From the NCBI GenBank assembly GCA_020697515.1, contig JAIXNB010000037.1, forward strand, positions 1 to 8,846: a stretch of DNA of 8,846 nucleotides, given 5' to 3'. The DNA comes from Nanobdellota archaeon. GTDB lineage: Archaea > Nanobdellota > Nanobdellia > Nanobdellales > Nanobdellaceae. A model generated the notes under the pieces. That model was not told the origin of the DNA, made no database searches, and saw nothing but the letters and a program-made list of their open reading frames with translations. A program made the translations under genes and the position numbers. This document shows positions 1 through 8,846 of the stretch, piece after piece. Within the stretch, counting starts at the first letter, position 1. Each line of letters begins with the position of its first letter.

Positions 1-2
1 GT

Positions 3-401
3 CCTGCAGATCCATCATCTATCAAAATTATTATTAATAAAAATGAGTTGGCGATTCCCAGTTGTAGTAGCTATAAGCATAACACGCCTCTAGTACTTAC
101 CCCATATTTAAAAACAGGTAGGAACATTATACTAGTAGATAGCGATCATAAGGTAGTTTTGAGAGATATGGAAATAGAGATAGAAGAACCCAAAATCTTT
201 CATATGTTTAAACGACCGAGAAATGGAATACTATATCTGTTTGTGATAAAAGGAAGAGGTATTCTGAGAATAAACAATTGTACTTATGAAATTACACCAC
301 AAACCGCAGTATTAAACATAAAACGATGTATAATGGATAATAACTTACTGATACTGGAAGCAAACCCATATATAGAGATATCAAAAATTGTTATAACATG
401 A
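3..401 (+). CDS. C-terminal part (or whole, if TTG-48 is the start) of an uncharacterised beta-rich protein; first gene of the putative surface-protein cluster
   Basis: The frame is open from the left window edge (..PADPSSIKIIINKNELAIPSC..), with no ATG or GTG before the TTG at 48, so the gene probably starts upstream of the window. The stop overlaps the next start as ATGA (398-401). The C-terminus ...EISKIVIT carries the KIV[IT] motif also found at the ends of the two lipoproteins. No known family recognised. Confidence 0.45.
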   Translation, partial: PADPSSIKIIINKNELAIPSCSSYKHNTPLVLTPYLKTGRNIILVDSDHKVVLRDMEIEIEEPKIFHMFKRPRNGILYLFVIKGRGILRINNCTYEITPQTAVLNIKRCIMDNNLLILEANPYIEISKIVIT

Positions 402-475
402 AAGGGGAGAGCACAGTTGGTATAATTGTATTAATTATTTTTCTAGTGTCTATAGGGTACATTGCAATAAATTTC
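398..475 (+). other. Candidate class III (prepilin-type) signal peptide or signal-anchor segment
   Basis: MKG-ESTV followed by a hydrophobic helix fits the [KR]-[GA] / small-hydrophobic pattern cleaved by archaeal prepilin peptidases. An uncleaved type II anchor is an equally possible reading. Confidence 0.4.
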
Positions 476-1723
476 AAAGAAGTTATTGAAGAGTATATTA
501 GAGGAGCGTCTGGGAAGGTTGTTACTGAGCCTGTTGAGGCTACTGCTAGATCTATAAGGGAAATGTACACATCATTGCAAAAAACTATGGACCTAGTAAC
601 GAATCCTTGGAAGTATATGTATGAAATAGAGGAAGCTAAGCCATCCGAAGAAGTTATAAGAGAACAATATGGGATCTCTATTAGTTATTTATCACCATTA
701 TCTCATGCTATATTTAAATGCAAGAATAAAAATTGTAGTGATATTATAATCCCTGATGTGTATCTGGTTTCCTACATTAGATACAATTTTCCCGAATGGA
801 AAAGAATTAGATTTTCTTGCAATGTAAGTACAACCTATGATGAATGCTTTTCTGTACGTCACTGTAATATCTCAAAAAAGGAGATTAAAGGAGTGAAAGG
901 AATATTAGCACAACAAATAAAGGTTACTCTAGAGTTTAACAAAAATATACCAATATGTCATGATTGTTCTATAACCACTAATCCAAAAGAATGTATAAAT
1001 GAACCAGTTAGATTTAAAGATTACGGGTTTAGAGCAGAGGTAACATTAAAAGCTAATTTTAATGTGGAAGCGAATACAACTTTCAGATCCCTAGTAACCA
1101 CTGATACAGTACTATCAGAGGCTATAAGTAGAAAGAAATCTATTTACAACGTACTAAATATAGACAGTACGAAATATGATGTAGCATATTATACAGGGCT
1201 TTTGGATTTCCCCCATGTAAGTATATCTAGATTAGGTAGAAATTACAATTATCCAATAATATTATTCGGGGAAAATACAGAATCTTATGATGTGTTACTG
1301 TTTGGAATCCGGGAATTAGATAATATAAAGTCTATAAACAATCTCAAGGTATATATATTTACATCTAAGGGCATTGACTTAAACTACTTAAATTTAGAAA
1401 ATGGAAAATGTGAAAATAATTATAGGCACGAATTTAAAATTGATGATTCTAAAACCTTATTTTCAATAAACTGCAGAGAACAAAGTAGCAATCTCGAGGG
1501 TGAGAAGCATTATTGTGATATTAAAATAACCAAAAAGTTTGTAGATAATTATAGAAGAAGGGATGGAGATCCATTGAAATTTATAATACCTATATGTCTG
1601 AGAAAAAAAGAAACATTTATTGGAGATTATGGAGAGTTATTGGTACGAGCATATATTAATTATACCTATGAAGTATCTGCGAGTTCGGAAATACCCTATA
1701 CTCCCTTTTATACAGAGATTTAA
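398..1723 (+). CDS. Cys-rich exported protein (441 aa) with a pilin-like class III signal peptide or N-terminal signal anchor; function unknown
   Basis: Long ORF coupled to the upstream ORF by an ATGA overlap. The N-terminus MKG/ESTVGIIVLIIFLVSIGYIAINF has a short charged leader (K at -2, G at -1) followed by about 22 hydrophobic residues. The rest is hydrophilic and beta-rich, with 12 Cys and 5 N-X-S/T sequons (NCS, NVS, NIS, NTT, NYT). The IPIC motif occurs at aa 184 and aa 397. Confidence 0.7.
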   Translation: MKGESTVGIIVLIIFLVSIGYIAINFKEVIEEYIRGASGKVVTEPVEATARSIREMYTSLQKTMDLVTNPWKYMYEIEEAKPSEEVIREQYGISISYLSPLSHAIFKCKNKNCSDIIIPDVYLVSYIRYNFPEWKRIRFSCNVSTTYDECFSVRHCNISKKEIKGVKGILAQQIKVTLEFNKNIPICHDCSITTNPKECINEPVRFKDYGFRAEVTLKANFNVEANTTFRSLVTTDTVLSEAISRKKSIYNVLNIDSTKYDVAYYTGLLDFPHVSISRLGRNYNYPIILFGENTESYDVLLFGIRELDNIKSINNLKVYIFTSKGIDLNYLNLENGKCENNYRHEFKIDDSKTLFSINCREQSSNLEGEKHYCDIKITKKFVDNYRRRDGDPLKFIIPICLRKKETFIGDYGELLVRAYINYTYEVSASSEIPYTPFYTEI

Positions 1724-1752
1724 TTTTTATTTTACAATTAGTTAAGTTTTAG

Positions 1753-1763
1753 ATTTATATTTA
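1753..1763 (+). promoter_or_regulatory. TATA-like box upstream of the first lipoprotein gene (implies a leaderless or near-leaderless mRNA)
   Basis: ATTTATATTTA is centred about 26 nt upstream of ATG 1784. It is preceded by oligo-T tracts (1724-1728, 1730-1733) just after the stop of the 441-aa gene, which could act as an archaeal terminator. Such AT-rich matches are common in this genome. Confidence 0.35.
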
Positions 1764-1783
1764 TGAACATAGTTAGATAAGTA

Positions 1784-1843
1784 ATGGATAGAAGAATAAT
1801 AGGATTTGCATTTATATTTCCATTGATACTATTGGCAGGATGT
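1784..1843 (+). other. Signal peptide with lipobox (LLAG/C)
   Basis: Matches the classical lipobox [LVI][ASTVI][GAS]C directly after a hydrophobic core. The DNA GCAGGATGTACTAATA (1835-1850) differs at only one position from the equivalent site of the next gene (2876-2891). Confidence 0.6.
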
Positions 1844-2824
1844 ACTAATACTCAGACAAAGTCATCATCAATGTTAATGTCTTCTTTTAGATGTACACTA
1901 CCATCACAGCCAGGAGTAATAGATGTAGAAGTTACTGGTTTTCCTTCAGAGATTATTGCATCAACATCGGATAAGGAGGGGTCTCCGGTAGTGTTTTCTA
2001 TCGAATTCAAGAATACTATTACAGGAGTTGATTATCCTGAGGATAGGATAAATATAAAATATACATTTATCCCAAATATTGGAAAAAAATATACTAAAGA
2101 TGTACAAATAGATTTGGCATATTATGATCCAACTTCCAATCAAATAACACCAAGTACAATTTATGAACAAGTAGAAACAAAAATTCCGGCTGGAATGTCT
2201 GAAATGGGCGTATACAGAGGTGTACTTAGGTGGGAATTTATAGGAAAAACAAAAGTTTATATACCTATATGTATTGGTTATGATCCTAAAATAACTAAAG
2301 TCTCTCCAGAAGTAATGGTTTGTGATCCAACTAGTTTGCCAGAACCATGTTACAGCGCATCACCTGTTATAGTTAATATAGAAAGTGTAAAATCTATAGG
2401 AGCCCCGAGAAGAGGAGGATCCGGGATAAGAGGGTACTATAAAATAAGGTTCTCTTTAGAAGACATATATGGTGGACTTGATGGTTGTAATGGAGATTAT
2501 TTATCAAATACAAAGAGAATTAAGGTGGATAAAATCGAGCTAAAAGTAGACGATTTATCTATAGAGGAGGGAGGTGATATATTCAGGTGTTATCCATTAG
2601 AGAAAAAAGATGGTAAGAGTTATATATACCTAAGACCTTCAAACGAGATAGTATGCTATGTTTATTTAGACAAGCTAGCTGATAAATGTAAACAAAATAA
2701 TAATTGTTATTTGGATGAGAACTCATTGAAACTCGGAAAATCTGCTATGATATCCATAAAATTAGAGTATGATTATTGTAGGAGTATGTCGCTTGGTCCT
2801 GCTAAAATAGTTACTTTACCTTAA
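1784..2824 (+). CDS. Putative lipoprotein (346 aa), Cys-rich extracellular domain, unknown family
   Basis: The N-terminus MDRRIIGFAFIFPLILLAGC has a positive n-region, a hydrophobic h-region and lipobox L-A-G-C (Cys20, nt 1841-1843), followed by a Ser/Thr-rich tether (TNTQTKSSS). The mature part has 10 Cys. IPIC occurs at aa 160. The C-terminal module is MISIKLEYDYCRSMSLGPAKIVTLP. Confidence 0.75.
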   Translation: MDRRIIGFAFIFPLILLAGCTNTQTKSSSMLMSSFRCTLPSQPGVIDVEVTGFPSEIIASTSDKEGSPVVFSIEFKNTITGVDYPEDRINIKYTFIPNIGKKYTKDVQIDLAYYDPTSNQITPSTIYEQVETKIPAGMSEMGVYRGVLRWEFIGKTKVYIPICIGYDPKITKVSPEVMVCDPTSLPEPCYSASPVIVNIESVKSIGAPRRGGSGIRGYYKIRFSLEDIYGGLDGCNGDYLSNTKRIKVDKIELKVDDLSIEEGGDIFRCYPLEKKDGKSYIYLRPSNEIVCYVYLDKLADKCKQNNNCYLDENSLKLGKSAMISIKLEYDYCRSMSLGPAKIVTLP

Positions 2825-2830
2825 TAAGTT

Positions 2831-2884
2831 GTGAGGTGTATATATTTTTTATTTTTGCTCCCCATTCTATTATTAGCAGGATGT
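2831..2884 (+). other. Signal peptide with lipobox (LLAG/C)
   Basis: LLLAGCTN is identical in its last six residues to the LLAGCTN of the upstream gene. Confidence 0.55.
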
Positions 2885-3721
2885 ACAAATATTCCTAATG
2901 AACCTAAACCTAAAACAAAACCTAAGGAACTTCTTATAACACCGATATATGAAATATGGCCGGATAAAATTACTGAGACTTACGCTAAAAGCTCAGGATT
3001 TTATTTCACATTTAAAGTATATAACCCGTATAATAAAACTAATTTTACTGCTTGTTTAGACTCTTTTGTTGGAAGAGAATGGAGTGTCATTGGAAAGAGA
3101 TGTATAAATGAAGAACTTGCTAAGGATACCTATAAGATATTTAGTTTACCAGTAGGTGGAAGAATAAAATTAGTATTGGGTTTAGAAAGCAAGCAAAAAT
3201 ACGAGGATGTTAGAGTAAATATATGTTATAATGCTACTCAAATCTTTATTTTAACAGGATGCGTACCGAAAAATATAGGAGAAGGTCATAATCAAGCATC
3301 CATCTGCAAATACAAGATTATCGAATCTCTAAGGGGGCCAATTAAGGTATATAGTGCTGTTATGTCCTCCAATAGAACACATTACATCTTAAGCTTTAGA
3401 CTAAAATATTTTCCTGATAACCGAACATATATATCTAGCGACTCTACGATTCTTTCAAGTAAATGTTATTTATCTTATGTGATAAAAAGTGGTGGAATAG
3501 TTGAAATACCTATAAATATTAGCTATATAACAAATACTTTGTATTTTAAATACACCAAAGTTAATGTAAGTAGTGTAGGGGAAGATATAGGAGTTACTAT
3601 AATTTTTGATAAAAATAAAGCAGGTTTGACACCGAGGGATATTATTTCTATTAAGTTAAAATTAAGTTATATTATTTTTAAACAAATGAATTTTGGAAAA
3701 ATTGTTATAGAACACTCTTAG
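2831..3721 (+). CDS. Putative lipoprotein (296 aa), paralog of the preceding gene at its signal peptide and C-terminus
   Basis: GTG is the only possible start after the in-frame stop at 2825-2827, 6 nt past the preceding stop codon. The N-terminus is MRCIYFLFLLPILLLAGC (lipobox Cys18, nt 2882-2884), followed by a Pro/Lys-rich tether (NEPKPKTKPKE). The mature part has 6 Cys and 7 N-X-S/T sequons. The C-terminal IISIKLKLSYIIFKQMNFGKIVIEHS aligns with the 346-aa protein with identical spacing. Confidence 0.7.
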   Translation: MRCIYFLFLLPILLLAGCTNIPNEPKPKTKPKELLITPIYEIWPDKITETYAKSSGFYFTFKVYNPYNKTNFTACLDSFVGREWSVIGKRCINEELAKDTYKIFSLPVGGRIKLVLGLESKQKYEDVRVNICYNATQIFILTGCVPKNIGEGHNQASICKYKIIESLRGPIKVYSAVMSSNRTHYILSFRLKYFPDNRTYISSDSTILSSKCYLSYVIKSGGIVEIPINISYITNTLYFKYTKVNVSSVGEDIGVTIIFDKNKAGLTPRDIISIKLKLSYIIFKQMNFGKIVIEHS

Positions 3722-3723
3722 AG

Positions 3724-3730
3724 TTTTTAA
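3724..3730 (+). promoter_or_regulatory. TATA-like box upstream of aIF2-alpha
   Basis: TTTTTAA is centred about 27 nt upstream of ATG 3754, within a 32-nt intergenic spacer and with no Shine-Dalgarno-like GGTGA/GGAGG between them. Weak evidence in AT-rich DNA. Confidence 0.3.
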
Positions 3731-3753
3731 CCTTTTATTTTTGAAAATTAAAA

Positions 3754-4524
3754 ATGTACAAGAGAAAAGATTTCCCATGTAAAGGAGATCTTGTGCTTGG
3801 CACCGTAAAAGAAATATCTAACATAATGGTAAAGGTTGAGCTAGATGAATATGAGGATGCATATGGTATAATTCCTATAGATGAGATTTCACATAAAAGG
3901 ATAAAGAATGTTAGAGAAGTTGTAGATATTGGAAAGAAGATTGTATGTTTAGTTATGGATTCTGATCCCGCAAATCGTTTAGCAACTTTATCGTTAAAGA
4001 GAGTTTCCGAGGGACAGAAGAAACTGAAGATATATCAATACAAAAGGGAACAAACCGCATATAACTTATTGCTTCTTTTATCTGAACAAGAGAACATCCC
4101 TATAGAAACGTTGCATGAGGAAATAGTTTATAAGATACTATCCAAAGGTAGACTTTTATACCAAGTTTGGGAAGAAGCTTATATAGAAGGAGAAGCAATT
4201 CTAGAAAAATATGGAATACCTAAGAAATACGTTAATTCTCTATATAGAATAATAAAAGAGCATTTTAATGTACCAAAATATGTAAGAAAGGGATATATAG
4301 AAATGTATACATTAGCTTCGGATGGTATAGATAGATTAAAGAAAGTTCTGTTAGAATTAAAGAATATCGGTTTGGAGGTAAAGTACGCTGGGGCGCCAAG
4401 ATATTATTTTAAGTTGGAACATTATAATCCCAAAGAGTTAGATAAAACATATAGGAAGATGGAGGAAGTTGTAAGATCTATGGCCGAACATTTAGAGATA
4501 GAATATGAAATAGTAGAGGAATGA
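3754..4524 (+). CDS. eif2a: Translation initiation factor aIF-2 alpha subunit
   Basis: The N-terminal S1/OB domain (GDLVLGTVKEI...VKVELDEY..AYGIIPIDEIS.KRIKNVREVVDIGKKIVCLVMDSDP....TLSLKRV) closely follows the aIF2-alpha/eIF2-alpha pattern. The length of 256 aa is typical, and the gene is followed by nop10, as is common in archaea. Confidence 0.93.
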   Translation: MYKRKDFPCKGDLVLGTVKEISNIMVKVELDEYEDAYGIIPIDEISHKRIKNVREVVDIGKKIVCLVMDSDPANRLATLSLKRVSEGQKKLKIYQYKREQTAYNLLLLLSEQENIPIETLHEEIVYKILSKGRLLYQVWEEAYIEGEAILEKYGIPKKYVNSLYRIIKEHFNVPKYVRKGYIEMYTLASDGIDRLKKVLLELKNIGLEVKYAGAPRYYFKLEHYNPKELDKTYRKMEEVVRSMAEHLEIEYEIVEE

Positions 4525-4697
4525 AAGAAATAAGGAAGTGTCCTAAATGTAGAATATATACCTTTAGAGAGATATGTCCCCGATGTAACAACAAAACTAA
4601 TAGAGCAATTCCTCCCAAATTCTCTCCAGAAGATCCTTGGGGGAAGTATCGTAGAAAGATGAAAAGAAAGCTTTTAGAAAAAAAAGGTTGGTTATAA
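4521..4697 (+). CDS. nop10: H/ACA RNP component Nop10 (58 aa); absent from the supplied ORF track
   Basis: Manual translation gives MKEIRKCPKCRIYTFREICPRCNNKTNRAIPPKFSPEDPWGKYRRKMKRKLLEKKGWL. It has the CxxC...CxxC zinc ribbon and the PP(K/R)FSPEDP.G.YRR signature of archaeal Nop10. The ATG overlaps the aIF2-alpha stop (ATGA at 4521-4524), and the TAA lies at 4695-4697. Confidence 0.9.
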   Translation: MKEIRKCPKCRIYTFREICPRCNNKTNRAIPPKFSPEDPWGKYRRKMKRKLLEKKGWL

Positions 4698-4701
4698 TTA
4701 G

Positions 4702-5475
4702 ATGCTGGAGGTAATTACTCATAAAGAAATTGAAATATACAAGCCTATTTTGATTTATGGAGTAGGGGGAGGAATGGGTAATGTTGCTAAGTTAGTAGGG
4801 AGAAAGATAATAAAAACATTTAAAGCGAAATTGTATAGTACTTACCTAATAGATGCTTTTCCAGATATAGTATATTCAGATAAAAAAGGAGTCTTAAGAG
4901 TATTAAAATTAGATCTATATTATTTTAATTTCAAAAATAGAGATTTTTTAGTACTCTATGGAGACGTCCAGCCGAACGCGCAACCTTTAGATGTCCCAGC
5001 AAGATTTACATTCTCTAGGGCTTTCTTGAAATTTCTAAAAGAAAATAATTCAAAGTTAATAATCTCTGTTGGAGGATATGGTATAGAGATAGAGCCCGAA
5101 GACCCAAAACTATACTTTGCAGCAAATAACAAAAAAGTATTAAGGAGACTTAAAAAAATTCTAAAGGAAGACTTTAATTTATATACAGAGAATAATATTG
5201 TGGGGCTTTCAGGATTATTAGTATCTCTAGCGAGATTCTACAAAATTCCTGCATTTATAACTTTAGCAGAAACATATCCGACAATTAATATAAATGGATA
5301 TCTTGGTGCTAAAAAGATTATTGAGTCATTAAATAAATTATTTGGTTTTAATATAGAACTAAAGGACTATGAAGAAAAGGGCAAAAAGGTCAGAGAGAGT
5401 ATATTAAAGCATATAAAGTATGCAAAAGGAAGAAAGCCGCCAGAAAAAAGAAAGGATATCTACTATTTTGGGTGA
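4702..5475 (+). CDS. PAC2-family proteasome assembly chaperone-like protein (COG1938-type)
   Basis: Starts 4 nt after the nop10 stop. The N-terminal KPILIYGVGGGMGNVAKLVG pattern and later LISVGGYG / VGLSGLL segments resemble archaeal PAC2/PbaA-PbaB family proteins. The position after aIF2-alpha and nop10 matches the conserved archaeal neighbourhood. Called from memory of the family pattern, not from a search. Confidence 0.7.
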   Translation: MLEVITHKEIEIYKPILIYGVGGGMGNVAKLVGRKIIKTFKAKLYSTYLIDAFPDIVYSDKKGVLRVLKLDLYYFNFKNRDFLVLYGDVQPNAQPLDVPARFTFSRAFLKFLKENNSKLIISVGGYGIEIEPEDPKLYFAANNKKVLRRLKKILKEDFNLYTENNIVGLSGLLVSLARFYKIPAFITLAETYPTININGYLGAKKIIESLNKLFGFNIELKDYEEKGKKVRESILKHIKYAKGRKPPEKRKDIYYFG

Positions 5476-5492
5476 GCCTGATAAATCTTTAT

Positions 5493-5960
5493 TTATTGTT
5501 TCCTTTTAAATTCAGGTTTTGATTTAAATTGTTGGGCTAGCCTTGGTGCAACTTTCTCTAGATGATGCAGTAGCAATTGATTTTTAGCGTTAAGATCATT
5601 AATTACTGTAGTAAGTTGAAGTATCCTAGCTGATATCGCATTTAGCATATTATTCAACTCATCCTTTGTAAACTCTATTTTTTTTATTCCTTCAATTTCT
5701 ATGTGGGATGGGGAGAACATTAATATAAAGTCTAATAGCGATTGAAAATCTTTTGGAGATCCCTCTAATTCCAAAAAGCTAGACCACATTTTAATTTTCT
5801 TACCATTAACCTCTATTTCTCTTTCTATAGGTTCCTCTATTTTATAGTTCGTTATTTCTAAACCCTCAAACTGTTTTATATCTTCTAATAGTTTATTTAA
5901 AAATTGTGTAATAAAATCTTTTGGAGATCCAAGAGCTTCAAAGAAAAATCTCGCCTTCAT
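5493..5960 (-). CDS. Uncharacterised 155-aa protein with an internal duplication and a C-terminal coiled-coil/basic tail
   Basis: The start overlaps the L44e stop (ATGA on the minus strand, 5957-5960). Two copies of beta-strand + GSPKDF + helix are present (FFFEALGSPKDFITQFLNKLL and SFLELEGSPKDFQSLLDFILMF). The C-terminal heptad-like segment is NNMLNAISARILQLTTVINDLNAKNQLLLHHLEK, followed by KSKPEFKRKQ. The protein has no Cys and no recognised family. Confidence 0.6.
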   Translation of the reverse strand: MKARFFFEALGSPKDFITQFLNKLLEDIKQFEGLEITNYKIEEPIEREIEVNGKKIKMWSSFLELEGSPKDFQSLLDFILMFSPSHIEIEGIKKIEFTKDELNNMLNAISARILQLTTVINDLNAKNQLLLHHLEKVAPRLAQQFKSKPEFKRKQ

Positions 5961-6274
5961 TTTCTAATAGCAGATACAAATTCCACTTTCTTATACCTCC
6001 CTTCTATTCTCCACACGTGTTTTCTTCTACATTGCATACATTCAACTCTTAAATCAACACCTTTAGACACCTTAAACACCCCTCTTTTTCTCTGGTTTAG
6101 TGGTCTTTTACTATATTTACCATGATTTCCCTTCCCTTTTTTTCCTTCCCTAGCCTTTCTAGCACCCCATGAAAGTCCTGTTCTCTGCTTGGAAGGCTTA
6201 ACTATTATTACTGTGTGTTCTGTGTGGGTTTTACAGACTGGACAATATTTTTTTACAGTTCTCGGGATTTTCAT
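5957..6274 (-). CDS. rpl44e: Large-subunit ribosomal protein L44e (eL42)
   Basis: MKIPRTVKKYCPVCKTHTEHTV...GKGNHGKYSKRP...ECMQCRRKH shows the split CxxC...CxxC zinc ribbon and the GxxGKxSK core typical of L44e. The length (105 aa) and basic composition also fit. Confidence 0.93.
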   Translation of the reverse strand: MKIPRTVKKYCPVCKTHTEHTVIIVKPSKQRTGLSWGARKAREGKKGKGNHGKYSKRPLNQRKRGVFKVSKGVDLRVECMQCRRKHVWRIEGRYKKVEFVSAIRK

Positions 6275-6299
6275 TCACCAAAATTACATTATAAAGTTT

Positions 6300-6911
6300 T
6301 TATCCTTTTCTCATTTTTATTTCTTCACATATATTTAAAGATAACATTCTTTTCGCAATTTCTTTAGGCAATGTGTATATCTCTTCGGGATTGAAGGGAC
6401 CATATATCTTTCCATCAGGACCAACAATTTGAGAAAATTCTTTTGTAAATATAACTAGAACTTTGTTTATTCTCTTTGTTCTTTTTTCCATCAGTGGTTT
6501 AACATCTTCGAATAGTTTATTTATTTCTGGAGGCTCTCCTAAAAATATATTTTCCAAAACATGTTTATAATACCCCCTTAACAATGCGGATACCACATCA
6601 AATAATATTCTCTCTTCTCTAGTCATATCATTTCTCTCAGCTATCTTTATATTCTCCTTCGCCTCGAATAAAGCTAGATTAATTAGTTTCTCTAGTCTAA
6701 TGTTAACAATTTGTTTTATGAGCTCCTTTAGGTTCTCTAACTCTAACTTTAACCTTTTATGTTCTTCATCTTCTTCTCCTAATTCAAGAAATCTTTTATA
6801 TCTTTTTATCATATCTGAAACACGTTTATAAAATTGTTCTTCAAGTGGTTCTAACTTATTTTTCATCCTTTTTTCTCTTTCATAGACTGCAAAAATATCA
6901 GAAATATCCAT
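6300..6911 (-). CDS. gins51: GINS subunit, Gins51/Gins15 (Sld5/Psf1-like) family
   Basis: The N-terminal A-domain pattern is MDI..I....E.....L.PL.E.FY.RV...I...........E.......LE..N....I...VNIRLEKLINLA. The C-terminal B-domain pattern VLVIFTKEFSQIVGPDGKIYGPFNPEEIYTLPKEIAKRMLSLNICEEI resembles the (V.FL.D.P.FVG.D...YGP....D...LP...A..L......EEI) pattern of archaeal Gins51. This is pattern recognition only. Confidence 0.6.
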   Translation of the reverse strand: MDISDIFAVYEREKRMKNKLEPLEEQFYKRVSDMIKRYKRFLELGEEDEEHKRLKLELENLKELIKQIVNIRLEKLINLALFEAKENIKIAERNDMTREERILFDVVSALLRGYYKHVLENIFLGEPPEINKLFEDVKPLMEKRTKRINKVLVIFTKEFSQIVGPDGKIYGPFNPEEIYTLPKEIAKRMLSLNICEEIKMRKG

Positions 6912-6923
6912 GGGGTATTATAG

Positions 6924-6931
6924 TTTTAAAA
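6924..6931. promoter_or_regulatory. Palindromic TATA-like box TTTTAAAA in the divergent gins51 / reverse gyrase region
   Basis: It is centred about 27 nt upstream of ATG 6955 (the reverse gyrase start preferred here) and about 17 nt from the gins51 ATG (6911, minus strand). The sequence is its own reverse complement, so it could be read in both directions. Confidence 0.35.
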
Positions 6932-6954
6932 TGATAAGTACGTTACACATGATT

Positions 6955-8709
6955 ATGTATCTGTATATAAAACAAGGATGTTTTAATTGTCAAAATACTA
7001 TATATTCTGAGAGACTAAGGCATAGTGTTCCCTGTGAGAGAGATATTGATGATGAAGCTTATTTTGATGTAATTCAAAAGTTTCATGATAAAGAATCATT
7101 ATACGAGTATTTATATATGTATCTAAATAGAGAAGGAAGGCTTTTTAAGTTTAAGGAGTTGTATGATCTACACAAAGCTACAAGAGATTTCATTAGTTTC
7201 TTTCTGAAAATTTTGGATTCTGAACCGTGGTCCATACAAATAACTTGGTTTAAAAGATTGTATAACAAATTCTCATTCTCAATGATAGCTCCAACAGGAA
7301 CAGGGAAGACCACTTTTATAGCAGTATCCTCGATCTATTTCTCCTCAAAGTTAAATAAGAAGATCTATATAGTATTACCGACAACAGTTCTTGTAGAACA
7401 AGTGTATGAACGAATTGTTCAATTTGTAGAGAAAATAGACACTTCTCTAAATGTTGTTGCATATCTTAGAAAGAACAAAAAGGAAGCTAAAGAAAGAATA
7501 ATCAAGGGAGAATTTGATATACTTATAACATCTAATCAATTTTTGTCTAGGAATTTTGATATACTTAAAGATAAAAAATTTGATATAATCTTTGTTGATG
7601 ATGTAGATGCATTCTTCAAAGGATCTAAAAATATAGAGAGAGTTCTAATCCTCTTGGGGTTTACAGATGAAGATATAAATACCGCTTATGAGATGATAAA
7701 AGCTAAAAGGCAAGGAGATTTTGAATTGGTAAAGAAACTTAATGAAAAGTTAGAAAAAGTAAAATCCAAACCTCATGGAATATTAATATTATCTTCAGCT
7801 ACCGGAAGGATTCGTGGAACAAGGACAAAGTTATATAGAGAACTTTTGAATTTCACGGCAGGAACAGGTACTACCAAAATTAGAAATATAATTGATACAT
7901 ATGTACTGCCTAAACAGGATTTAAAGATCGAAGTATATAAATTGGTGAATCTTTTAGGGGACGGAATAGTTATATTTGTTACTAGAGAACAAGGAGTGAA
8001 GTTTGCAAAGGAACTTTATGAATTTTTGAGGGATAGAAATGTCAGAGCAGGTATAGTTGTATCTGAAATCAAAGGAAGTACAGAGAACATCAAAAAGTTT
8101 GCTAATAAAGAATTAAATGTCCTTATAGGTATTGCACACTTCTATGGATTATTGGTTAGAGGGTTAGATCTACCTACTAGAGTTAAATATGTTATATTCA
8201 CAGGAATTCCTAAAATAAGAATTAACTTAACTAGAAAAGAGAGGAATGCTAACAATTTGATGATACTTGCAAACATACTTTTAGATATCTTACCACAAGA
8301 TCGATCTAGAGAACTAAAAATATTATTAAGAAAACTCCAAAGAGCTTTTAGGAGGCTGTCTTCAGAAGCTTTTAGGGTACTATCTGAAAGCTTTGAGCGA
8401 GGGACATCAATTGATGGTTGGTTGGAAAATCTTAGACAACAATTAGAAAGGTTGTACAATATTGTATCAGAAATATTAGATAAAGAGGATATTATTGAGA
8501 AATTAAAGAACCATCCAGATGTTAGTATAACAATTTCTAATGGAGATATTTGGTTAAACTTACCGGATATAAAAACCTACATACAAGCATCTGGAAGGAG
8601 CTCTAGATTATATGCAGGGGGTATTACTAAAGGTTTAAGTATCATACTAGTCGATGATGAAAAACTGTTGAGAAGTTTGGAGAGAAAGATGAAACTATAT
8701 TTTGATTAA
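6955..8709 (+). CDS. rgy: Reverse gyrase, N-terminal helicase-like half only (split reverse gyrase)
   Basis: The maximal ORF begins at 6910. ATG 6955 (or 6949) is preferred because reverse gyrases start a few residues before the zinc finger (here CFNC-x14-CERD) and a TATA-like box lies about 27 nt upstream. Diagnostic reverse gyrase motifs: F..FF......PW.IQ..W.KR......FS.IAPTGTGKTTF (Walker A at 7288-7314), ILITSNQFLSRN, FDIIFVDDVDAFFKGSKNIERVLILLGF (motif II near 7594-7608), ILILSSATG, FRELLNF-like LYRELLNFTAG, LNVLIGIAHFYGLLVRGLDLPTRVKYVIFTGIPK, and YIQASGRSSRLYAGGITKGLSIILVDDEKL (motif VI at 8584-8607). The ORF ends 40 aa after motif VI, with no Toprim/topoisomerase IA domain. Confidence 0.9.
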   Translation: MYLYIKQGCFNCQNTIYSERLRHSVPCERDIDDEAYFDVIQKFHDKESLYEYLYMYLNREGRLFKFKELYDLHKATRDFISFFLKILDSEPWSIQITWFKRLYNKFSFSMIAPTGTGKTTFIAVSSIYFSSKLNKKIYIVLPTTVLVEQVYERIVQFVEKIDTSLNVVAYLRKNKKEAKERIIKGEFDILITSNQFLSRNFDILKDKKFDIIFVDDVDAFFKGSKNIERVLILLGFTDEDINTAYEMIKAKRQGDFELVKKLNEKLEKVKSKPHGILILSSATGRIRGTRTKLYRELLNFTAGTGTTKIRNIIDTYVLPKQDLKIEVYKLVNLLGDGIVIFVTREQGVKFAKELYEFLRDRNVRAGIVVSEIKGSTENIKKFANKELNVLIGIAHFYGLLVRGLDLPTRVKYVIFTGIPKIRINLTRKERNANNLMILANILLDILPQDRSRELKILLRKLQRAFRRLSSEAFRVLSESFERGTSIDGWLENLRQQLERLYNIVSEILDKEDIIEKLKNHPDVSITISNGDIWLNLPDIKTYIQASGRSSRLYAGGITKGLSIILVDDEKLLRSLERKMKLYFD

Positions 8710-8735
8710 AGCATAGTTGATATAATTCAGTCGCC

Positions 8736-8807
8736 AGTTAACAATATGTTAAATAGATGTTAACACCATGTTAACTAATGTTAACATAATCTATGAAGGT
8801 TGTTAAA
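8736..8807. repeat. Helically phased array of (A/T)GTTAA(C/A) boxes (four GTTAAC palindromes plus two GTTAAA variants)
   Basis: The boxes are AGTTAAC 8736-8742, ATGTTAAA 8746-8753, ATGTTAAC 8757-8764, ATGTTAAC 8768-8775, ATGTTAAC 8778-8785 and TGTTAAA 8801-8807. The spacing of box starts is 10, 11, 11 and 10 bp, then about 22 bp. By eye, only one other GTTAAC occurs in the remaining 8.7 kb (6702-6707, inside the gins51 CDS). Confidence 0.7.
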
Positions 8808-8846
8808 ATATTAAGGGCAGGATATCCTAAGGATATATATTATTAA

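Follow-up and report, generated by a model that had tools for sequence, protein, structure and literature searches.

A Conserved Four-Gene Cluster of Nanopusillaceae Predicted to Encode Four Unrelated Families of Membrane-Tethered Extracytoplasmic Proteins

Introduction

With some 600 genes, Nanoarchaeota live as obligate episymbionts, and to our knowledge it is not known which molecules attach them to their hosts. The question raised here is what is encoded by four consecutive plus-strand open reading frames (ORFs), designated O1–O4, at the 5′ end of an 8,846-nt stretch of DNA (GenBank assembly GCA_020697515.1, contig JAIXNB010000037.1, positions 1–8,846 of the forward strand); the whole of this stretch is called the window. 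The initial annotation of this DNA took a nanoarchaeal episymbiont as its likely source and read O1–O4 as one paralogous family produced by local duplication, with one pilin-like and two lipid-anchored members that together make up a surface assembly, plausibly for host attachment. The guess at the organism was correct: the proteins of the window match exactly HIP90114–HIP90123 of a metagenome-assembled genome (MAG) of Candidatus Nanopusillus sp., a tiny archaeon of hot vents, and six metagenome or MAG contigs (L001–L006; related loci also carry L numbers, and individual proteins P numbers) are 99.4–99.98% identical to the window. The cluster is read here as specific to Nanopusillaceae and as encoding four unrelated families of extracytoplasmic, membrane-tethered proteins that are proposed to form one complex, a reading to which we assign a probability of about 0.6.

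Four Separate Families Without Known Homologs

As judged by sequence comparison, O1, O2, O3 and O4 are four separate families, and O1 and O2 have no detectable relation to O3 and O4. The best pairwise BLASTP match among the four has an E-value of 0.055, and hhalign on alignments of 3–16 members gives a probability of 2.4% or less for every pair except O3–O4. The link between the O2 and O3 profiles is confined to a 9-residue strand carrying an IPIC motif (E = 0.11, not significant). A full HMMER pass over 1.84 billion representatives, for which the query was concatenated O2, O3 and O4 without O1, recovered 22 relatives: 13 match only O2, five only O3 and four only O4, and none matches two segments. 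The O2 family found in this way comprises 13 representatives with identities down to 24%. All named relatives are annotated as “hypothetical protein” and derive from Nanopusillaceae MAGs or from MAGs binned as Aenigmatarchaeota. The deepest alignments reached contain 6 (O1), 16 (O2), 11 (O3) and 9 (O4) sequences. The claim of a paralogous family fails at this point, as neither BLASTP nor hhalign connects O1, O2 and O3/O4.

The pair O3 and O4 is a case of its own. Their signal peptides are homologous (E = 2e-6 in profile–profile comparison). With the signal peptides removed, the C-terminal ~60 aa still give an hhalign score of 28.9 (E = 0.0037, probability 9%), compared with a mean of 15.5 and a maximum of 21.3 in 40 block-shuffles and about 17.5 for reversed profiles; the central 200 aa show no signal. 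O3 and O4 may be very old paralogs, or they may have a C-terminal beta-element in common (Table 1).

Scans of O1–O4 against Pfam, NCBIfam, PHROGs and PADLOC returned only sub-threshold noise, and PDB profile searches with the family alignments returned no match; the absence of a catalytic or known-family signature, asserted from the start, holds across all five resources. A metagenome scan with one family alignment likewise gave no match, a genome scan anchored on eIF2alpha recovered one locus only, and the searchable literature yielded no account of the conserved O1–O4 arrangement, of the paired lipoproteins or of the Cys pattern. On the basis of these searches O1–O4 represent four previously undescribed protein families, none of which is found in any curated family. 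The cluster is a lineage-specific surface-protein operon of unfamiliar families; no new mechanism is demonstrated, so it is not a categorically new system. A mobile-element, viral or defense origin was considered and rejected, given the uniform G + C (GC) content (31% throughout the window), the stable synteny among core genes and the lack of any PHROGs or PADLOC match.

AlphaFold2 models of O2 and O3, made from alignments of 3–4 sequences, have a mean confidence (predicted local distance difference test, pLDDT) of 52 and 44, respectively. Foldseek comparison of these low-confidence models with the PDB finds generic beta-sandwiches (cohesin, carbohydrate-binding module [CBM], Eph ligand-binding domain [LBD], SIDT1 ectodomain) with TM-scores of 0.2–0.4. 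What support there is for the original description of the proteins as beta-rich comes from these two models.

Conserved Gene Order and Spacing

The four ORFs, the ATGA overlap between O1 and O2 (398–401) and the 6-nt gap between O3 and O4 (2825–2830) are all present as first described, and O2, O3 and O4 lie in one common reading frame (398–3718). The order Pelota–O1–O2–O3–O4–eIF2alpha is kept in every related lineage recovered. The full order, Pelota–O1–O2–O3–O4–eIF2alpha–Nop10–PAC2–MJ0538–L44e–Gins51–reverse gyrase helicase half, is found in L011, L013, L017/L018 and L019/L020, and is partly visible in L007, L009, L010, L012, L015 and L021. The identity of O2 in these syntenic loci is as low as 23%, and among their sources are sediment of Great Boiling Spring (L021) as well as other hot-spring and marine-vent sites.

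Spacing within the cluster is also conserved. The ATGA overlap of O1 and O2 occurs in the window, L007, L010 and L011 (a 4-nt overlap is usual), and O3 and O4 are 6 nt apart or overlap in the window, L010, L011, L017 and L019; the gap between the O1|O2 pair and the O3|O4 pair is 32–60 nt. Two coupled pairs, O1|O2 and O3|O4, are defined by this spacing. The TATA-box-like element TTTATATT (Table 1) is a possible internal promoter of O3, and if it acts as such, O1–O2 and O3–O4 may form two coupled pairs in this respect as well. The number of genes varies in two places: in L013, O3 is present as a tandem duplicate (11337–13342; 343 + 311 aa), both copies of which carry LEYLYNYTT-ANI-LCLG-PD...NRLCSPSEQPKICQTGSP, giving a five-gene cluster, and in L019/L020 an additional coiled-coil gene precedes O2.

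Lipoprotein Signals of O3 and O4

The two lipoboxes noted at first are present, and in both O3 and O4 they read LLAGC. The O3 signal, MDRRIIGFAFIFPLILLAGC, has its lipobox Cys at position 20 and the O4 signal, MRCIYFLFLLPILLLAGC, at position 18, each in the manner of a Sec-type lipoprotein precursor. This Cys is kept in 16 of 16 full-length O3/O4 sequences checked, with 1–4 Lys/Arg residues in the n-region, a hydrophobic stretch that runs as far as the box and a small residue at position −1, and the boxes across the family read LAGC, LSGC, AAGC, FAGC, FSSC, FLSC, FQAC or FFSC. By sequence definition O3 and O4 are predicted lipoproteins of the signal peptidase II (SPII) type. As all O1 and O2 members have a strong N-terminal transmembrane (TM) helix, the export signals first recognized in the window proteins are conserved family-wide.

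The start codon adopted here for O4 (Table 1) is backed by orthologs that begin with MRLIYFLF; gene callers place the start at TTG 2855 (288 aa), which cuts the signal peptide short. Within a genome, the O3 and O4 signal peptides share a mean identity of 0.49, compared with 0.30 between orthologs. In L017, the 5′ ends of O3 and O4 (11263–11352 and 12236–12322) contain 46 identical nucleotides with unrelated flanks, a pattern that indicates recent gene conversion.

N-Terminal Anchors of O1 and O2

O2 begins with MKGESTV followed by a hydrophobic helix. After this TM helix (aa 6–24) come a stalk that is predicted to be helical and carries a conserved NP motif (aa 69–70), and then a Cys-rich domain with 12 Cys; three O2 lineages have two helices. 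The description of O2 as a pilin-like subunit is doubtful. O2 of the window does fit the class III signal motif, but the strict (FlaFind-type) [KRDE][GA] pattern is matched by no more than 2 of the 15 O2 members and 1 of the 6 O1 members. A looser [KR][GA] precedes the helix in about eight O2 members. In P0037/P0047, P0040 and P0048, 80–400 aa precede the first of two TM helices and there is no short leader. O1 orthologs have a conserved [KR]-x-Q before the helix, in which position −1 is N, H or Y, not G or A. The N-termini of O1 and O2 are read here as putative signal anchors.

A divergent homolog of A24 prepilin peptidases, a polytopic membrane protein, is encoded immediately 5′ of Pelota, with which its gene overlaps, in L017 (6937–7917) and L019 (6233–7216). 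Its matches to Peptidase_A24 (E = 4e-5 to 9e-4 over the full profile) and to Arc_PepC are sub-threshold, and its positional ortholog in L013 (7045–7854) matches Arc_PepC_II only (E = 8e-4, sub-threshold). This gene is unannotated in precomputed tables. Neither the cluster nor its immediate surroundings contain an ATPase or platform gene of a type-IV filament (TFF); the single T2SSE gene encountered lies in L013, at a distance of ~10 kb.

One sub-lineage of O2, represented by P0048 (864 aa), P0037/P0047 (537 aa) and P0040 (650 aa), carries a coiled-coil cytoplasmic domain of 170–400 aa that contains PPSQPPKQPT repeats and precedes two TM helices; in L019 the preceding separate gene is at 9300–10043. 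This combination would make O2 a membrane-spanning linker in that sub-lineage.

Cysteine Pattern

The mature Cys counts of 12 (O2), 10 (O3) and 6 (O4) agree with those first given, and the idea that even counts reflect disulfides is strengthened by even counts in orthologs and by paired gain and loss. Every complete O1, O3 and O4 member has an even number of mature Cys, as have 12 of the 15 complete O2 sequences; one or two additional lineage-specific Cys occur in three close orthologs of O2, that of L007 lying in the TM helix. Members of O1 have 6 Cys (6 of 6), those of O2 have 8 or 12 plus extras, those of O3 have 4, 6, 8, 10 or 12, and those of O4 have 4, 6 or 8.

Five core Cys of O2 are invariant (C141, C150, C199, C359 and C373), and others are lost pairwise (C108/C113, C156/C190 and C338/C400). 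C235 and C332 of O3 are lost together in P0026, O1 exchanges C136 for C151, and the six mature Cys of O4 are invariant in a five-member alignment and kept in 8 of 9 family members. Such a pattern is what would be expected of structural disulfides. A metal-binding CHDC motif in O2 was considered and rejected, because C190 vanishes together with C156, while C187 and C199 persist.

Modules, Strain Mosaic, and Divergence of O1

The full-length O1 orthologs (L007, L011, L013, L015, L017 and L019) consist of an N-terminal TM helix and three internal repeat modules, A to C, with two Cys each; the window covers part of module B and the whole of module C. The modules are similar to one another in hhalign (A–B, E = 4.7e-4; B–C, E = 9.7e-4). 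They carry h-x-h-N-G-x-x-h ... Y-L-x-x-G-x-N-x-h-x-h, a pattern typical of galactose-binding-domain (GBD)-like jelly rolls. GBD-like_ZMIZ1_ZMIZ2 is matched at sub-threshold level by 4 of 8 members (best E = 0.011; 15.8–16.3 bits against a cutoff of 26), and Glyco_hydro_2_N by one member (E = 0.05, sub-threshold).

A strain-variable segment lies inside module B. When L004 is compared with the window, 41 mismatches are found, all of them within positions 18–161 (~28% divergence), after which a 1-base length difference is the only change over 7.3 kb; the edge of the segment is a sharp recombination boundary inside module B. All six same-species contigs begin at window positions 1–872 or only 123 nt upstream, and strain heterogeneity breaks assemblies at such places. 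The clustered contig starts and the mosaic together suggest a hypervariable stretch in and upstream of O1. Between lineages, O1–O4 are 23–35% identical, compared with 37–77% for flanking proteins; the rate of divergence of the cluster proteins is about double that of most of the flanking genes.

Short Motifs Shared by the Four Proteins

The initial annotation tied the genes together by short motifs, and these are present where it placed them: IPIC at aa 184 and 397 of O2 and aa 160 of O3, the identical 12-mer ATACCTATATGT at 1586 and 2261, KIV among the eight C-terminal residues of O1, O3 and O4, and an ISIKL-to-KIV spacing of 18 residues in both O3 and O4. The number of IPIC occurrences expected by chance is 0.025 and not ~0.01 as had been given, but three are seen, and the occurrence remains above chance. 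A Cys-containing 4-mer occurring at least three times in at least two proteins arose in 6 of 2000 shuffles, and a tripeptide common to at least three of the four C-terminal octapeptides in 1 of 20000. The short motifs exceed composition-only chance. The 12-mer is one of six such repeats in the 31% GC region.

Conservation of the motifs in orthologs is not borne out for the first IPIC of O2 or for KIV. Orthologs read NNPKC, DLAEC or DIPTC at the former site (the fate of each IPIC is given in Table 1). KIV is replaced by RII, KII, KLV or SVTV, is gone in L011, and is lost in distant orthologs, which end in IYTLYLS, FQIISTS or EININT. KIV of O1 lies in the strand that ends the third internal-repeat copy. 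A function of the C-terminal KIV as a sorting signal was rejected, as distant orthologs are without the motif. The “many N-X-S/T sequons” of the first description are found in O4 only (7, against 2.4 ± 1.4 expected); the number in O2 is that expected, and O3 contains no sequon.

A Proposed Surface Complex and Its Alternatives

In the proposed complex, O1 and O2 would each be inserted into the membrane by a single N-terminal helix acting as a signal anchor (N-in/C-out), and O3 and O4 would be exported via Sec, cleaved and lipid-anchored at the invariant lipobox Cys. Disulfides would brace all four ectodomains, and the products of O1–O4 would probably come together on the external side of the membrane as a single hetero-oligomeric complex. 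The best candidate for a ligand-binding subunit would be O1, whose three jelly-roll-like modules include a strain-variable middle one, the ligand being a glycan or a partner cell. A host-contact role of O1–O4 is plausible, as it is compatible with the fast evolution and the strain mosaic, and also with the population data for “hypothetical external” proteins in Nanoarchaeota (PMC6142677). In a more specific form, the cluster would encode a host-recognition and attachment complex in which a platform of O3/O4 and O2 presents O1, the O1 modules bind S-layer glycans of the host and set host specificity, and, in lineages with long O2, contact is coupled to the interior of the symbiont via the coiled coil; this form is speculative and unlikely.

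Several points weigh against the proposed complex. There is no usable structure, and the available models point to a beta-sandwich at most. The lipobox and TM calls are rule-based readings and not those of a dedicated signal-peptide predictor, and the GBD-like matches of O1 all lie under the Pfam thresholds, which makes the jelly-roll signal weak. Some hyperthermophiles have cytoplasmic disulfides, so Cys pairing alone is no proof of export. The case for complex formation consists of gene order and spacing; tight packing is the rule throughout such tiny genomes, and in L007 even Pelota and O1 overlap. Finally, placement among translation genes could suit a housekeeping envelope role equally well.

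That role can be stated more fully: O1–O4 would be envelope machinery without a function in host contact, for instance an S-layer anchor, a pseudoperiplasm scaffold, or a complex for lipid or nutrient uptake. A cluster that is present in single copy, keeps its place among core genes of translation and replication in all lineages seen, has a nearly constant number of genes and shows invariant core Cys and several invariant motifs accords with such machinery, as does the strongly reduced genome of this lineage; non-essential genes are usually lost from genomes of this kind. However, the cluster evolves faster than most of its neighbors, the strain mosaic of O1 is more typical of proteins that face a variable partner, and O1–O4 resemble no known family of S-layer, transporter or lipid-transfer proteins. 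Housekeeping machinery is a serious contender, although we hold it to be somewhat unlikely. A TFF module, in which O1 and O2 are class III proteins cut by the neighboring A24 peptidase and act as bindosome-like or pilus-tip adhesins with O3 and O4 as accessory lipoproteins, draws on the MKG|ESTVG start of O2 in the window, the [KR][GA] in about eight O2 orthologs, the [KR]-x-Q of O1 orthologs, the A24 homolog 5′ of Pelota in L017 and L019, and the precedent of large globular class III proteins in the Sulfolobus bindosome (10.64898/2026.04.22.720090). This module is nevertheless improbable, given that the strict motif is rare in both families and that position −1 of O1 does not fit; in addition, the cytoplasmic N-termini of 80–400 aa with two TM helices in some O2 are incompatible with a pilin leader, ATPase and platform genes are missing in and next to the cluster, and the sub-threshold peptidase probably serves archaellum and pili in general.

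The origin by local duplication, with one pilin-like and two lipid-anchored subunits as a host-attachment assembly, has in its favor that the motif coincidences exceed those of shuffled sequences, that O3 and O4 have homologous signal peptides and a weak C-terminal element, that O3 is duplicated in tandem in L013, and that the 5′ ends of O3 and O4 in L017 have undergone apparent gene conversion over 46 identical nucleotides. Yet O1/O2 and O3/O4 are without sequence or profile similarity even with 6–16-member alignments, no distant homolog matches more than one of O2, O3 and O4, the IPIC at aa 184 of O2 and the KIV are not conserved, and KIV of O1 belongs to the last strand of its own repeat, which together make this origin very doubtful. 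Under the preferred reading of four unrelated, membrane-tethered families, O1–O4 provide a short list of candidate components of the cell–cell interface or, failing that, of a core envelope complex. For work on how archaeal lipoproteins are made, O3 and O4 also offer a clean set of predicted Sec lipoproteins from a DPANN lineage, and should the cluster turn out to be ordinary envelope housekeeping, it would still supply four new family-specific markers for Nanopusillaceae.

Relation to Known Systems

In DPANN archaea, lipoproteins exported via Sec are predicted to be prevalent, and archaeal lipoproteins are lipidated by AliA/AliB in Haloferax volcanii (PMC12462473). O3 and O4 resemble archaeal Sec lipobox lipoproteins in their basic n-region, h-region of ~15 aa and [L/F][A/S][G/S/A]C box (PMC12462473). 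They are unlike known archaeal lipoproteins in that their mature domains have no known homologs and that some orthologs carry the non-canonical boxes FSSC, FFSC, FQAC or FSPC.

The Sulfolobus bindosome contains large globular proteins with class III signals (10.64898/2026.04.22.720090). O2 is like these proteins and like archaeal pilins in having a short basic N-terminus, one helix and a large extracellular domain, and O2 of the window fits [KR][GA][E]; a further likeness to class III systems is the A24 peptidase homolog near the cluster in relatives. In contrast to bindosome proteins and pilins, the motif of O2 is not family-wide, a substrate-binding-protein domain is lacking, no TFF ATPase or platform gene is at the locus, and some O2 have long cytoplasmic N-termini.

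Among the proteins of Nanoarchaeota, those classed as “hypothetical external” have the highest densities of non-synonymous single-nucleotide polymorphisms (Jarett et al., 2018; PMC6142677). O1 and O2 resemble these in lineage, in their topology with a single N-terminal TM helix and in fast evolution, although “hypothetical external” is a category and not the O1–O4 cluster (PMC6142677). O1 is also like the jelly rolls of the GBD clan and of CBMs (e.g., Glyco_hydro_2_N) in its module pattern and recurrent weak matches, and the low-confidence model of O3 likewise falls on CBM and Eph-LBD folds. Unlike GBD jelly rolls, O1 lacks an enzyme domain, and the pattern of one disulfide per module, as predicted, is peculiar to the O1 family.

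Coordinates and Neighboring Features

The coordinates of the genes and sequence elements are collected in Table 1. The genes 3′ of O4 are, in order, those for eIF2alpha, Nop10 and a PAC2 protein, then those for MJ0538, L44e and Gins51 on the minus strand, and then the reverse gyrase helicase half.

Table 1. Positions in the window of O1–O4 and of elements within or next to them.
Feature	Position	Strand	Remarks
O1	3..401	+	Partial; C-terminal 132 aa of a ~350-aa protein
Strain-variable mosaic segment, O1 module B	18..161	+	From comparison of L004 with the window
O2	398..1723	+	441 aa
First IPIC of O2 (aa 184-187)	947..958	+	Motif lost even in 66%-identical orthologs; C187 kept in at least 90%
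Second IPIC of O2 (aa 397-400)	1586..1597	+	Family-conserved; [IL]P[ILV]C in 13 of 15 members
TATA-box-like element TTTATATT	1754..1761	+	~26 nt 5′ of the O3 start; read by eye from the sequence
O3	1784..2824	+	346 aa
IPIC of O3 (aa 160-163)	2261..2272	+	IP[IL]C retained to 33% identity; missing from the most distant relatives
O3 C-terminal element (aa 268-345)	2585..2821	+	Weak hhalign match to the O4 C-terminus; contains ISIKL...KIV
O4	2831..3721	+	296 aa; GTG start
O4 C-terminal element (aa 232-296)	3524..3718	+	Counterpart of the O3 element

The helicase half of reverse gyrase is a separate gene (6910–8709, 599 aa) with weak zf_Rg and with DEAD, ResIII and Helicase_C domains, and a stand-alone gene of this kind occupies the same position in all relatives seen (L013, L017, L019 and L021). 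The intergenic sequence that follows it contains a 102-bp element (8737–8838) with five (AT)GTTAAC palindromic sites spaced by ~10–12 nt. In L001 this element is repeated with 100% identity ~3.3 kb downstream (12075–12176), so that the genes for TmcA and Trm1 lie between the two copies. The element has no tRNA or Rfam match, in line with the window as a whole, where no tRNA or Rfam elements were found, and it may be a repeated regulator-binding array. At about position 4678, the window differs from L001–L004 by a single base in length, which alters the end of Nop10 (58 versus 59 aa) and the start of PAC2 (4702 versus 4701); this difference is either an assembly error or a real variant.

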